A stretch of 64,000 bases of DNA from Escherichia phage pEC-M719-6WT.2 (OQ845958.1); one strand, 5' to 3'. Counted from the stretch's first letter, positions 15,249 to 51,968 are shown. Made by a program: numbers and translations. Notes: generated by a model from the letters alone, not told the origin.

Positions 15249-15703
15249 TGACATTAAATGAAGTCTCTGAAGGACTTTATGTTGCAGCCAAATTTTCAGA
15301 ATTAACTCTTGATGCGCTGGAAAATCTCCAGCGCTCTCTTAAGGTACCTAATCCCGTTCCTCGTGAAAAATTCCATTCCACTATTTGTTATTCCAGAGTA
15401 AATATTCCATATGTTGTTGCTTCCGGTAGTTTCGAAGTAGCCAACTCTGGTCACCTGGAAGTATGGAAAACCGACGACGGCAGCACGCTGGTTCTTGTAC
15501 TGGATTCAGATTATCTTAGTTGCAGACATATGTATGCACGAGCCATTGGCGCAACACATGATTTCCCGGACTATACTCCTCATATAACATTGTCTTATAA
15601 TGTTGGTCCTTTGACGTATAAAGGAGAAGTTCAGATTCCGGTTGTTTTAGACCGTGAATATAAAGAACCGCTAAAATTAAATTGGTCGGCGGATTTAAAG
15701 TAG
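15248..15703 (+). CDS. 57B: 2H phosphoesterase gp57B (Acb1-like cyclic-oligonucleotide phosphodiesterase)
   Basis: 151 aa in T4 57B position; two H-x-T/S motifs (FHSTICY, PHITLSY) typical of 2H/LigT fold. Confidence 0.7.
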
Positions 15704-15732
15704 TGTACAAATAAGTGTAGGTGCAGTATTAT
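15703..15732 (+). promoter_or_regulatory. sigma70-type early promoter (-35 GTGTAC, -10 TATTAT)
   Basis: GTGTAC-18 nt-TATTAT upstream of first IP-like gene. Confidence 0.5.
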
Positions 15733-15767
15733 GTTCCTACACCAACGAATGAACAAACGGAGTTAAT

Positions 15768-16100
15768 ATGAACATCAAAACTTACAACGAGTTTTTAGCC
15801 GAATCCGCCATCAATGAGACCAAATCAATTGATGATAGTGAAGGCTCTCTGAAATTTGGTTTAACCAAAAATGCAGATGGTGTTTTCTTTCAGATTGGTA
15901 ATGAACGTTTTCAAACGTCCAAATATTCCAAAGCTGCAGTTGAAGCTGTCCTGAAATCGGGTGGCAAGTGGAAAGGCAAAGAAGGTACTAAAGAAATTGG
16001 TATCGCTGTTGACGGCGGTATGGCTTATTTTAAAATTGGCGATGAACAATTTATTATGTCTGCTCGCGGACGTAAAGAACTGGCAAAACTTTATAAATAA
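15768..16100 (+). CDS. internal-protein-like protein with capsid targeting sequence
   Basis: N-terminus MNIKTYNEFLAE| resembles T4 IP capsid-targeting leader MKTYQEFIAE with L-x-E protease site. Confidence 0.7.
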   Translation: MNIKTYNEFLAESAINETKSIDDSEGSLKFGLTKNADGVFFQIGNERFQTSKYSKAAVEAVLKSGGKWKGKEGTKEIGIAVDGGMAYFKIGDEQFIMSARGRKELAKLYK

Positions 16101-16108
16101 GGTTTCTT

Positions 16109-16381
16109 ATGAAAACTTTCAATGAATTTTTCAACGAGTCACAACTGAATGAAGAAGTAAAAATTAGTAAAGCGGTCAAAGCTATGATTGACAATATCAA
16201 TCACTTGTATAGCATTGACTTAACTGACCATATAACAATTGGCAACAAACGCAACTTTTTCGCGTTTGACATTTCAGAACTTGACCAGAACCAAATTAAT
16301 AACATTGAGCGCTTCGCCAATGACAAGGGTCTCCGTCATGAGACAGCTGGTTATAAAAAATACGCAATTTATCTAAAATAG
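16109..16381 (+). CDS. internal-protein-like protein with capsid targeting sequence
   Basis: N-terminus MKTFNEFFNE|. Confidence 0.7.
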   Translation: MKTFNEFFNESQLNEEVKISKAVKAMIDNINHLYSIDLTDHITIGNKRNFFAFDISELDQNQINNIERFANDKGLRHETAGYKKYAIYLK

Positions 16382-16389
16382 GATTTCAA

Positions 16390-16689
16390 ATGCAAACGCT
16401 CCATGAATTTTTGGTAGAAAACAATTACCTGGCAGAAGCAAAAACCTGGCCTCTGGGCCTTCAGAAGAAAAACACCTACAAATGGGTTGACTTCAAAGGT
16501 AAAGGCGACGCTGAAGACTTTGACCAGCTGCGTAAAAATGGTTATACCTTCCTTGACTCTAATTATAACAAAATTACCTCTTTTAGTCAGAAATCAAGCA
16601 TTGCTTTCATTGAAACTGGTAAGAACACCCCTAAAAATATCACTGACGACTTCGCTGCTTATGGCGTAATTCGTGGTAGTAAGATGTAA
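16390..16689 (+). CDS. internal-protein-like protein with capsid targeting sequence
   Basis: N-terminus MQTLHEFLVE|. Confidence 0.65.
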   Translation: MQTLHEFLVENNYLAEAKTWPLGLQKKNTYKWVDFKGKGDAEDFDQLRKNGYTFLDSNYNKITSFSQKSSIAFIETGKNTPKNITDDFAAYGVIRGSKM

Positions 16690-16735
16690 TTAACAAAAGG
16701 GGATAATTATCCTCTTTTTATGGCTTGGAGACAAC

Positions 16736-16978
16736 ATGAAAACTTATCAAACATTTATAACAGAATCTTCCCATGGTATGGAAGTTAAACTTGGTCAAGC
16801 CCTTGCTGAAGCAGAGCGCCTGTTTGCACGTATCAAAGAACTTGCTGATTCAGTAGACGCATCATCTTTTAAAGGCGACCAGGGTAAAGTTAAAGCTCTC
16901 CTTGCTCTTTGTTCCGATGCAGGCGAGATTGCTAAGAACGGCACCAAGATGAAAAAACGTCTGGAAGACTTAAAATAA
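16736..16978 (+). CDS. internal-protein-like protein with capsid targeting sequence
   Basis: N-terminus MKTYQTFITE|; own promoter/leader cassette upstream. Confidence 0.7.
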   Translation: MKTYQTFITESSHGMEVKLGQALAEAERLFARIKELADSVDASSFKGDQGKVKALLALCSDAGEIAKNGTKMKKRLEDLK

Positions 16979-17034
16979 AGTATACGCGATGGGATAACTG
17001 CAGTATAATTATCTCATCAACTACTGGAGACAAC

Positions 17035-17289
17035 ATGAAAACTTATCAAGAATTTATTAACGAAGCCGCAGATGCAAAAGTTGAGTTTGCTTATGTTGGT
17101 TCCCCGCGTGGTAGTTTTTCTAATGAGGAATTGCGCCGTTCACTAGACAACTTCATGCAGTTAAGTGCTGAAGTATCGCATGATGGTCGCTATGACATCG
17201 TTACCATTAAAGGTTCTGAAGACCTTATCAAAAAGTGGCACAAGCAGAAAGATGTTGAGATGCGTTACTATCGTATCCCTAAAAAATAA
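17035..17289 (+). CDS. internal-protein-like protein with capsid targeting sequence
   Basis: N-terminus MKTYQEFINE|; own promoter/leader cassette upstream. Confidence 0.7.
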   Translation: MKTYQEFINEAADAKVEFAYVGSPRGSFSNEELRRSLDNFMQLSAEVSHDGRYDIVTIKGSEDLIKKWHKQKDVEMRYYRIPKK

Positions 17290-50173: not shown

Positions 50174-50469
50174 AACGTTTTGAAGAATATGTAGCTACTA
50201 ATTGGACCGCGTGGGACAAGTTCGGTGATGAATGGTACTTCCACGACTGTGACCTGGACCCGAAATTCTTTGCTGATAAAGAAGAAGACCTTAAAGATAT
50301 CTATGCTCTATCTGAGATTCATGGAATCAAACCGACGGTTTATTTCTCTTTCGATGACACAGGTTTCCTTATTCAGATTTATGTCCCGTATGCAACCGCC
50401 AGCGATGAAGAAGTTATTAAAACCTGGAACTACCAAGGAGTGATTTCCTGTGGGCCAAAACTCGACTAA
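50170..50469 (+). CDS. hypothetical acidic protein
   Basis: 99-aa ORF, ATGA overlap. Confidence 0.5.
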   Translation: MKRFEEYVATNWTAWDKFGDEWYFHDCDLDPKFFADKEEDLKDIYALSEIHGIKPTVYFSFDDTGFLIQIYVPYATASDEEVIKTWNYQGVISCGPKLD

Positions 50470-50767
50470 GATTGAAATCTATGGTATCCCCGAAGAAGTC
50501 GGTCGATGCCCTGGTTGTATGCACGTCAGGGGCCTTCTGGGCTCCTTAAACCTTCCTTATACATTCTATTCAGTCCTTAACAAACAAGGCTCTGAAATCG
50601 CTTATGACAGGCCTTTAATCGTGTCTTTGGCTAAGCGTGGTGGATATCCTACTCTTAACATTCGTTACCCGGTGATTTTTGTCAATGATGAAAAAATGAC
50701 CAATATTCCTGCCTTTAAAACAAAACTGATATCCCTGGGGTACGACCAGGACTTAATTGAAGATTAA
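50450..50767 (+). CDS. NrdH-like glutaredoxin (CPGC redox motif)
   Basis: IYGIPEEVGRCPGC thioredoxin-fold motif; GTG start in ORF track, true start uncertain. Confidence 0.55.
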   Translation: MGQNSTKIEIYGIPEEVGRCPGCMHVRGLLGSLNLPYTFYSVLNKQGSEIAYDRPLIVSLAKRGGYPTLNIRYPVIFVNDEKMTNIPAFKTKLISLGYDQDLIED

Positions 50768-50835
50768 AAAAGGGGTGTACAAGCCCCTTTGAACGGTGTA
50801 TCATTATCCCATCAACTACTGATGAGGAAAACAAA

Positions 50836-51012
50836 ATGGTTATTGAAGATAAAGAAATTAAAGTCAACCAGTATTATTCAATCAACGGCAAAGCTGTTTT
50901 AGTAACTGAAATATCTAGCCTGGATGTGTGGTATACCATAATTGACCTTGGTATTAAAATGATTTGTGACCGTGGAGTGTTTTGTTCGATAGCTAAGGAA
51001 ATTAAATTATGA
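50836..51012 (+). CDS. small hypothetical protein (58 aa)
   Basis: ATG behind promoter/leader cassette; stop overlaps next ATG. Confidence 0.4.
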   Translation: MVIEDKEIKVNQYYSINGKAVLVTEISSLDVWYTIIDLGIKMICDRGVFCSIAKEIKL

Positions 51013-51263
51013 GCCTGAAATTACACTCAATGAAAAATATCATTACCCTTAATCTGGATGATGAGCGCCTAATTTTTCTCACCGTCACTGATAAGAATAT
51101 TGAAATTGCAAATGGTCCTAAGACTTATTGCTGCCCAGTGAAGAATTGGAAGCATGTAACCTTTTTGACCCTGTGCGACCGTCTGAAAGACCTTAAGTTG
51201 GATTTGGATGTCAAAGATATCCAGTACATTAAAAATCTTATTGGATACAAACTGTTGAGGTAA
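51009..51263 (+). CDS. hypothetical protein
   Basis: 84-aa ORF. Confidence 0.5.
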   Translation: MSLKLHSMKNIITLNLDDERLIFLTVTDKNIEIANGPKTYCCPVKNWKHVTFLTLCDRLKDLKLDLDVKDIQYIKNLIGYKLLR

Positions 51264-51265
51264 CT

Positions 51266-51559
51266 ATGGGTAAAACTATCCGTCGTAAAGAATTGTCTTC
51301 TAAAGATTTTAATTGCATAGCTAGACGTAAAGCACCTGACGGTGTATCAGAAGAAACTTTGAATAAAAATATCTTCCGTTCGGACAAATGGAAACGTTTT
51401 TGTGGTGTTGATTCTGAAGTCAAGAATGAGATGAATCGTCAACTGCGCAAAGAAGTTCGTCAGTTGAAAAAAGATGTATACGTTGAGGATGATTTGGATT
51501 ATAATACTTCTCACCGTGTTGCAAAACGTAAATCAAACGAATGCTATCGTTACAGCTGA
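51266..51559 (+). CDS. hypothetical basic protein
   Basis: 97-aa ORF. Confidence 0.5.
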   Translation: MGKTIRRKELSSKDFNCIARRKAPDGVSEETLNKNIFRSDKWKRFCGVDSEVKNEMNRQLRKEVRQLKKDVYVEDDLDYNTSHRVAKRKSNECYRYS

Positions 51560-51566
51560 GGAAAAT

Positions 51567-51698
51567 ATGAATATCAAACGTATGCTTTTTAAACAAGGGT
51601 TATACACTTTAAATTCTGCTCCAAAAGGCGATACAACCAAGTGGTCAGTAAATGACTGGATTGAATTTATTGATGAAAACGGTAACTGGAAAATTTAA
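51567..51698 (+). CDS. small hypothetical protein (43 aa)
   Basis: ATG after SD GAGGAA. Confidence 0.35.
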   Translation: MNIKRMLFKQGLYTLNSAPKGDTTKWSVNDWIEFIDENGNWKI

Positions 51699-51896
51699 AT
51701 GAACCCTGAATCTAAATTATCACAACGAATTGCTGAAGCCCGTCGCCAGTTCTTTGAAAATATGATAGCTCAAGGCATTGATGACGAAGTTTTTCTGAAC
51801 TGGTTTTGGAATCACAAATATTCAAGTTGCTCAGGAGCAATATTGATATCAGCCGCAATGATGTATGAAGGCTGGAAAGCGGCTAAAGCGCAATAA
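51699..51896 (+). CDS. hypothetical protein
   Basis: 65-aa ORF. Confidence 0.45.
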   Translation: MNPESKLSQRIAEARRQFFENMIAQGIDDEVFLNWFWNHKYSSCSGAILISAAMMYEGWKAAKAQ

Positions 51897-51968
51897 AAAT
51901 CAACGGGGTCATGGTATAATGACCCCAGGATAATAAAATTTTAATTTAATGAGACTGAGGAATATATC

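Follow-up and report, generated by a model that had tools for sequence, protein, structure and literature searches.

The early region of Escherichia phage pEC-M719-6WT.2 (OQ845958.1) raises the question of what the short module of promoter, inverted repeat and leader is that recurs upstream of many of its genes, and whether these repeats make the region recombinationally plastic, as a first-pass annotation had proposed. We analysed the cassettes in a 64,000-nt stretch of this genome (the window). Because an excess of promoter matches, co-varying hairpins and promoter hexamers that are the most conserved positions occur together, we consider the cassettes to be, very probably, reiterated T4-type early-promoter cassettes of the early-promoter/stem-loop (PeSL) kind in a member of the genus Gaprivervirus, with local crossovers in their leaders as a secondary feature. 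The element class is already published, and the copies described here add to a known kind.

The window derives from a T4-like coliphage of the Gaprivervirus VR7/SP18 group. In megablast searches, the segments at 15-22 kb and 22-46 kb gave full-length matches at 92-98% identity to Gaprivervirus ECML-359, DK-13, EAWsc9, VR7, VR20, SP18 and the TH series. The T4 early gene set is present and the window is syntenic with Gaprivervirus genomes; in the ECML-359 annotation the order is gp53 (minus strand), gp4, gp2, gp3, gp1, 57A and 57B, followed by internal protein (IP) genes, tRNAs, e.x, nudE, e and denV, then vs.x, regB, vs, tk, rI, mobD.x and nrdC.x, and finally 49, nrdD/G, nrdH, 55.x, gp55, 47 and 46. 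Based on this gene order, the region is the classical T4 early/hyperplastic region in reverse complement of the T4 map. For comparison, the syntenic ~47 kb from 13 genomes (the relatives) was aligned to the window and the high-scoring segment pairs were chained.

A generic sigma-70 scan for TTGACA/TATAAT did not discriminate the cassettes (67 matches, compared with 54 +/- 6 in shuffles), and the T4-type pattern was therefore used instead. Searched on both strands, GTKTAC-N17/18-TATAAT was matched at 11 or more of 12 positions 15 times on the plus strand and once on the minus strand, whereas 200 dinucleotide shuffles gave a mean of 0.86 (sd 0.92, maximum 4). Every cassette copy is on the plus strand, in an intergenic gap directly upstream of a plus-strand open reading frame (ORF), with a Shine-Dalgarno (SD) sequence and ATG 19-45 nt past the predicted +1. 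The cassette consensus, aAAAA..GTGTAC-N17/18-TATAAT-(t/g)ATCCC-AT(CAACT)ACTGAG, with downstream variants ATCAAC/ATACTGAG and A-rich columns preceding the -35 box, agrees with the published consensus of T4-like early promoters, in which GTTTAC occupies -36 to -31, C occupies -3 to -1 and the UP region is A-rich (PMC1524935). Our literature search found no open paper on VR7 or SP18 promoters. Among the relatives, the most conserved cassette positions are the -10 and -35 hexamers (1.3% and 2.3% substitutions, respectively), compared with 4.6% in the UP region, 6.7% in the spacer, which changes most, and 3.3-3.8% in the flanking ORFs. This pattern is the signature expected of working promoters and points to purifying selection.

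Between 15.7 and 52 kb, the plus strand contains 18 copies: 16 full cassettes, one decayed copy (16690) and one -10-only copy (51905) (Table 1). We define a full cassette as GTKTAC, a 17-18 nt spacer, TATAAT, usually a hairpin at the -10 or -35, a 19-45 nt A-rich leader, a Shine-Dalgarno sequence and ATG. All 15 sites listed in the first-pass annotation were read, and 13 are full cassettes whose listed starts lie within about 16 nt of the true -35; the remaining two, at 16690 and 51905, are cassette remnants, the former having neither -35 nor -10 and the latter no match to the -35. The estimate of at least 15 copies was a slight under-count, with three more full copies at 25164, 26185 and 29456. 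The statement that cassettes bracket most hypothetical genes was wrong: they are located at only 18 of 96-100 gene junctions (about 19%), and therefore do not bracket most genes. At the position of the decayed copy C2, relatives TH54 and TH41 have a complete cassette, and C4 is the ortholog of the T4 and T6 trna.4 promoter. Intrinsic terminators precede C5 (20462-20478, together with an A-rich UP region) and, as a separate element, C13 (about 35650-35680).

Table 1. Early-promoter cassettes C1 to C18 and one middle-promoter element of the window. MFE p, probability of the minimum free energy of folding; 12/12, all hexamer positions match.
Feature	Position	Strand	Promoter boxes	Stem	MFE p	Leader and context
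C1	15703..15770	+	GTGTAC-N18-TATTAT	GTGTAGG/CCTACAC around -10	0.017	57B-ip junction, upstream of first IP-like gene
C2	16690..16738	+	-35 and -10 lost	collapsed palindrome GGGGATAATTATCCTC, then T5		decayed
C3	16980..17037	+	GTATAC-N18-TATAAT	GATGGGATAA/TTATCTCATC around -10	0.033	leader class A
C4	17290..17349	+	GTGTAC-N17-TATAAT	(AT)GGGATA/TATCCC(AT)	0.010	leader A ATCAACTACTGAGGAGAATAAAATG
C5	20521..20604	+	GTGTAC-N18-CATAAT	none significant		leader class B variant
C6	21040..21113	+	TTTTAC-N17-TATAAT	GGTGGGATAGTG/TATTATCCCA(T)ACTG-type around -10	0.003	leader B
C7	21567..21640	+	GTATAC-N18-CATAAT	GGGGG/CCCCC enclosing -35, partial T-run	0.003	leader B
C8	25164..25225	+	GTATAC-N18-TATCAT	none significant		leader CAACTAATGAGGAAAATATTATG; insertion hot spot; absent from first-pass list
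C9	26185..26244	+	GTGTAC-N18-CACAAT (weak -10)	GGAC.../...GTCC around -10	0.020	absent from first-pass list
C10	28995..29053	+	ATGTAC-N18-TATAAT	TGATAGGGT/ACCCTATCA around -10	0.003	upstream of denV
C11	29456..29518	+	GTGTAC-N18-TATAAT (12/12)		0.040	upstream of IP-like gene (MKTYQEF); absent from first-pass list
C12	31591..31650	+	GTGTAC-N18-TATGAT	none significant	0.96	upstream of regB
C13	35684..35744	+	GTTTAC-N18-TACTAT		0.007	leader A exact
C14	39986..40059	+	GTGTAC-N18-CATAAT	none significant	0.096	leader B
C15	40575..40643	+	GTGTAC-N18-TATAAT (12/12)	13-bp stem around -10	0.007	leader B short form
C16	43176..43235	+	GTTTAC-N18-TATAAT (12/12)	none significant	0.25	own leader CTACTTTATGAGGAG
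C17	50775..50838	+	GTGTAC-N18-TATCAT	GGGG/CCCC enclosing -35, then TTT	0.023	leader A with 1 mismatch
C18	51905..51971	+	TGGTATAAT (extended -10); no -35 match	GGGGTCAT/ATGACCCC around TGGTATAAT		partial
MotA-box middle promoter	21944..22018	+	GTGCTTTA-N12-TAGTAT	GGGAACAT/ATGTTCCC around -10		PmSL-like

The description of the -10 as often lying inside an inverted repeat was borne out. When both hexamers were held fixed and the other positions shuffled, 12 of 16 cassettes folded better than chance at MFE p<0.05 (Stouffer Z = -8.8). In about ten cases the stem encloses the -10, for example GTGTAGG/CCTACAC, GGGATA/TATCCC, GATAGGGT/ACCCTATC and GGGGTCAT/ATGACCCC, whereas the GGGG(G)/CCCC(C) stems of C7 and C17 enclose the -35 and are followed by T-rich sequence. 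Since the stems occupy different registers relative to the -10, a single consensus structure was unusable for covariation, and the pairing of each cassette's own arms was compared with pairing across cassettes. Arms of at least eight different sequences occur among 131 distinct cassettes (window, relatives and T6); a perfect stem of at least 6 bp around the -10 is present in 43.5% of these cassettes, compared with 11.8% when arms of different cassettes are paired. At the trna.4 promoter, the window and T4/T6 have an identical leader (ATCAACTACTGAGGAGAATAAAATG) and arms that differ yet remain complementary (GGGATA/TATCCC in the window, ATAGGGT/ACCCTAT in T4/T6). Of 60 changed stem-pair cells within the genus, 43 retain pairing, the counts being of sequences and not of independent events. 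In these comparisons the hairpin arms co-vary, both between copies and between the window phage and T4/T6.

The leaders that follow the promoters fall into two classes, A (AUCAACUACUGAGGAG) and B (AUACUGAGUUACCAAAUAAACAAAC..GGAG), and both recur as the first-pass annotation had described: leader B (CCATACTGAGTTACCAAATA) has four exact copies where 0.02 are expected, and leader A (TATCCCATCAACTACTGAGGAG) three copies at no more than one mismatch where none is expected. With a length of 19-45 nt and an A content of 50%, the predicted 5' untranslated regions (5'UTRs) have essentially no structure (MFE about 0 to -3 kcal/mol), and an Rfam scan of the whole window found two tRNAs only, the leaders matching no known RNA family. 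Leader A is widespread in Tevenvirinae (735 records), and leader B is essentially confined to Gaprivervirus, where each genome has it at 8-13 places; T4-like phages of Morganella and Providencia gave weak matches. Exact stretches of 20-33 nt are common to cassette copies and consist mostly of the leader and SD/start part; C7 and C14, 19 kb apart and upstream of unrelated genes, have near-identical leaders over 33-51 nt.

Six cassettes (C1-C4, C10 and C11) belong to two IP loci, at 15.7-17.3 kb and 28.7-29.8 kb, which are built of tandem cassette-IP gene units in the same layout as the IP locus of T4 and T6. Seven small IP-like ORFs (15768-17289 and 28726-29815) have N-termini of the capsid-targeting type (MKTYQEF, MKTFNEF, MNIKTYNEF and MQTLHEF). 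Relatives have either exchanged or lost the IP gene located between C2 and C3, and the 5' coding repeat for MKTYQEF is itself an indel junction, with a 32-33 nt overlap at 29513-29545, next to C11. Together, the match to the T4-type consensus, the hairpins beyond chance with their co-varying arms and the conservation of the hexamers bear out the PeSL-like identity, as early promoter, stem-loop and leader, that had been suggested for these cassettes.

Other promoter-like sequences were observed in the window. Three more strong matches to the promoter pattern (11-12 of 12) lie inside ORFs, at 46362 (70 nt upstream of a pin-like gene), 49449 and 51476 (about 90 nt before a 43-aa ORF deleted from DK-13, TH41 and TH44). 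Sites resembling MotA-box middle promoters, (T)GCTT-N12-TAnnnT, are present at 21944, 41166, 53081, 54730 and 58085, and the first of these, with its hairpin, resembles the 'PmSL' elements reported in nt-1.

Alignment with the relatives gave 153 discontinuities between 15 and 54 kb, which reduce to 69 distinct events and 89 distinct breakpoint positions. The cassettes, at 3.7% of the sequence, contain 15 of the 89 breakpoints (p about 1e-6 relative to sequence length), but most indels are situated elsewhere. Several rearrangements add or remove a gene together with a cassette. At C4, DK-13, YenP8 and RZ contain an inserted IP gene and a new cassette, with a 31-nt overlap, and in DK-13 an extra gene and cassette follow C6 and the ORF g21638 is separately deleted, the right end of that deletion being the MotA-box element at 21944..22018. 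A gene replacement between C6 and C7 in DK-13 and YenP8 was considered and rejected, inspection having resolved the difference into the inserted gene plus cassette and the separate g21638 deletion. The leaders in DK-13 are chimeric, which puts the crossovers within CCATACTGAGTTACCAAATAAA and within TGGAKAATAAAA. A 21-nt repeat of the SD and start region borders the insertions at C8, and overlaps at cassette-associated junctions measure 21-33 nt, the 33-nt case lying in the MKTYQEF 5' coding repeat next to C11. A variable minus-strand gene (39193-39939) has its right edge exactly at the -35 of C14.

The architecture, strand and position bias, hexamer conservation, selected hairpins and crossovers within the shared leader are observed. 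Each cassette comprises an A-rich UP region, GTKTAC, a 17-18 nt spacer, TATAAT, a C-rich -3 to -1 and a putative +1 A, followed by a 19-45 nt leader, a strong Shine-Dalgarno sequence (GGAG or GAGG), an AU-rich spacer and AUG. The inverted repeat of most copies places the -10 in the hairpin loop, or the -35 instead in two to three copies. In the mechanism that we propose, host sigma-70 RNA polymerase would initiate early transcription directly after infection, at the A following CCC, and the A-rich, unstructured leader with its GGAG or GAGG would allow efficient translation. Because the predicted transcription start is inside the 3' arm, the hairpin would be confined to DNA and to RNA that reads through from the upstream gene, and in such RNA it would most plausibly act as an attenuator or a 3'-end stabiliser; only the GGGG/CCCC hairpins with a T-run resemble an intrinsic terminator. 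As the comparison with relatives shows, the leader, SD and start stretches that copies share, together with the MKTYQEF 5' coding repeat at the IP loci, provide short-homology crossover points at which 'gene plus cassette' units are added or removed locally.

Several observations weigh against this reading of the cassettes. C5, C8, C12 and C16 have no significant hairpin, the C14 hairpin is also non-significant (p=0.096) and a T-tract is missing after most hairpins; we infer promoter activity and the +1 position from sequence; and some of the alignment ends at cassettes could arise because the cassettes are conserved islands and not because crossovers occurred there. At the level of junctions there is no enrichment of breakpoints, which occur at 9 of 18 cassette junctions and 40 of 82 others (Fisher p = 0.57; 0.41-0.60 under other paddings and a corrected gene model); half of the cassettes have no breakpoint in the 13 relatives, and among these relatives no cassette-flanked gene has relocated to a non-syntenic or other cassette site. 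The junction counts and the absence of relocation favor an alternative in which the cassettes are only ordinary early promoters with optimised translation-initiation regions, alike through functional constraint and passive in recombination, genes being gained and lost by microhomology at any boundary. The location of 67 of the 89 breakpoints at gene junctions of any kind is in line with this alternative, as are the 25 of 69 distinct events with both ends at non-cassette junctions, among them precise single-gene deletions at 33.5, 44.5-46.9 and 51.6 kb with overlaps of 3-17 nt. We nevertheless regard it as possible but the less likely account, since variable cassette junctions have changed more than once (with 2-8 distinct events apiece; mean per junction 1.72 versus 0.80 at others, a non-significant difference, Mann-Whitney p = 0.10), overlaps at cassette-associated junctions are longer, the chimeric leaders put crossovers inside shared sequence, the likeness of the C7 and C14 leaders exceeds what promoter and SD need, and a plain promoter needs no co-varying hairpin arms. 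The first-pass view of the region as recombinationally plastic is therefore upheld in part: gene-plus-cassette indels and leader crossovers are clear, and cassettes are enriched for breakpoints relative to sequence length but show no excess over ordinary gene junctions. The role of the cassettes in recombination appears modest, and they would be one contributor to plasticity and not its main driver.

Whether the hairpins are mainly intrinsic terminators that insulate each cistron also has to be considered, because a stem-loop of one PeSL in phage RB49 lowered lacZ expression as strongly as rrnB T1 (PMC2839356), and T-rich sequence comes after the GGGG(G)/CCCC(C) stems of C7 and C17. In the window, the stems enclosing the -10 are followed by AUCAACUAC or AUACUGAG, without a U-tract, and no cassette stem scored as a plus-strand terminator, whereas true terminators such as that at 20462-20478 did. 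Lacking a T-tract and a terminator score, most hairpins make the terminator half of the PeSL definition doubtful, and a general terminator function is unlikely; such a role is plausible only for the type with a GC stem and T-run (C7 and C17), and by its sequence C7 is of the terminator-promoter composite type. Tandem gene duplication, with paralogs copied along with their promoters, would account for the 44% identity over 73 aa between g20602 and g21111, which also share a 31-nt segment, 97% identical, at their 3' ends, and for the MKTYQEF N-terminus common to seven IP-like genes. Yet no protein similarity was found among the genes after C7, C14 and C15 (leader B) or among those after C4, C13 and C17 (leader A), copies with unrelated downstream genes lie 13-33 kb apart, and conservation of the C4 leader at the orthologous site extends to T4 and T6. 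We rejected duplication as the sole source, given that most of the downstream proteins are unrelated; it explains only part of the repetition and is very improbable as the general explanation. The barely elevated count of the generic promoter scan would suit chance promoter-like hexamers in an AT-rich genome, but this explanation has practically no probability left and is refuted by the strand-specific excess of the T4-type pattern, the recurrence of 20-22 nt leaders and the conservation of the hexamers.

With early-promoter cassettes of the PeSL kind as the preferred identification, a further suggestion concerns the hairpin and the class B leader. With its co-varying arms, the hairpin that loops out the -10 and holds the transcription start within its 3' arm may itself be functional, and the class B leader may be a portable 5'UTR module passed among unrelated genes; we put this forward as a speculation with rather long odds. 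Extruded by supercoiling as a DNA hairpin or cruciform, the structure might tune the firing of early promoters; alternatively, it might be a target of structure-specific nuclease or recombination activity, for example endonuclease VII.

Additional variable loci and RNA genes were found in the window. The early region has a single minus-strand gene, at 39193-39939, whose 248-aa product contains a tail needle knob domain of the Sf6 type (PF16532, E=4.7e-32). This gene lies between a bidirectional terminator (39170-39190) and the C14 -35, and is missing in 6 of the 13 relatives (TH55, TH22, TH44, TH41, TH57 and TH15); it looks like a moron-type insertion, unusual in a T4-like phage. The anaerobic ribonucleotide reductase genes nrdD/nrdG (47559-49843) are affected by a deletion in TH44 (2395 nt to 121 nt) and a replacement in TH15 (2873 nt to 1220 nt), neither with breakpoints at a cassette. 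At 24141-24669, three direct repeats of about 32 nt (TGGGTGTCCTCCTCTTCTGAATGTTAAGGAAT) lie at the 3' ends of three tandem small paralogous ORFs, and relatives have insertions of about 250 nt at 24680-24690. Around gp4 and gp2 (12351-13665), insertions of 630-740 nt annotated as homing endonucleases occur in relatives at three points (12351/12383, 12817-12842 and 13650-13665), unrelated to the cassettes. At 18792-18944 and 19196-19310, after genes for tRNA-Met(CAT) and tRNA-Arg(TCT) comes a counterpart of rnaD (species 2), a small stable RNA of T4, with 93-94% identity at both ends; no clear match to rnaC was found.

These results extend the published picture of PeSLs and IP loci to a further T4-like genus, Gaprivervirus, and the clean cassette inventory serves annotation and promoter prediction. 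They also advise caution, since the crossovers are mainly in the shared leader and SD part and not in the promoter or hairpin, and since, with ordinary gene junctions as the null, cassettes are not detectably more breakpoint-prone; a better-controlled test of the idea that PeSLs drive plasticity is therefore needed. For mutational study, the co-varying hairpin around the -10 offers a well-defined target.

PeSLs were described in RB49/phi1 (Arbiol 2010, PMC2839356) and later reported in T4/PST and nt-1/KVP40 (Comeau 2014, PMC4122927). Like the window cassettes, they are intergenic composites, made up of an AT-rich region, a promoter with boxes about 17 nt apart, a stem-loop, a Shine-Dalgarno sequence and ATG (PMC2839356), and they are present in many copies in hyperplastic early regions, where some indels are cassette-bounded. 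Degraded 'half' copies exist in both (here C2 and C18), and the RB49/phi1 stems are mostly found between the two promoter boxes or over the -10 (PMC2839356). The cassettes differ from these PeSLs in several respects. Their -35 is GTGTAC, T4-type with G in the third position, whereas that of RB49 is TTGACA and that of T4/PST is TTTACW; their stems are mostly AT/GC-mixed and enclose the -10, only two to three being of the GGGG/CCCC type, and most are without a T-tract; they have two conserved transcribed leader classes, of which class B is essentially Gaprivervirus-only; and, at the level of junctions, they are no more breakpoint-prone than other gene boundaries.

The resemblance to T4 early promoters (Miller 2003; Nolan 2006, PMC1524935) lies in the GTTTAC-like -35 at -36 to -31, the A-rich UP element and TATAAT, and the C-rich -3 to -1 is found in the early promoters of RB69, RB49 and 44RR (PMC1524935). 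The preference for G at the third position of the -35 (GTGTAC), our own observation, sets the window apart from T4. Finally, the summary of Repoila 1994 given in PMC2839356 describes analogous elements at T-even IP loci, with T4 early promoters and weaker, AT-rich stems. The window cassettes share these features, together with the tandem cassette-IP units and the MKTYQEF 5' coding repeat, but also occur outside the IP loci (at 20.5-21.6, 25.2, 26.2, 31.6, 35.7, 40.0-40.6, 43.2 and 50.8 kb). At the IP loci themselves, the window phage and T4/T6 have the same architecture, down to an identical trna.4 leader.

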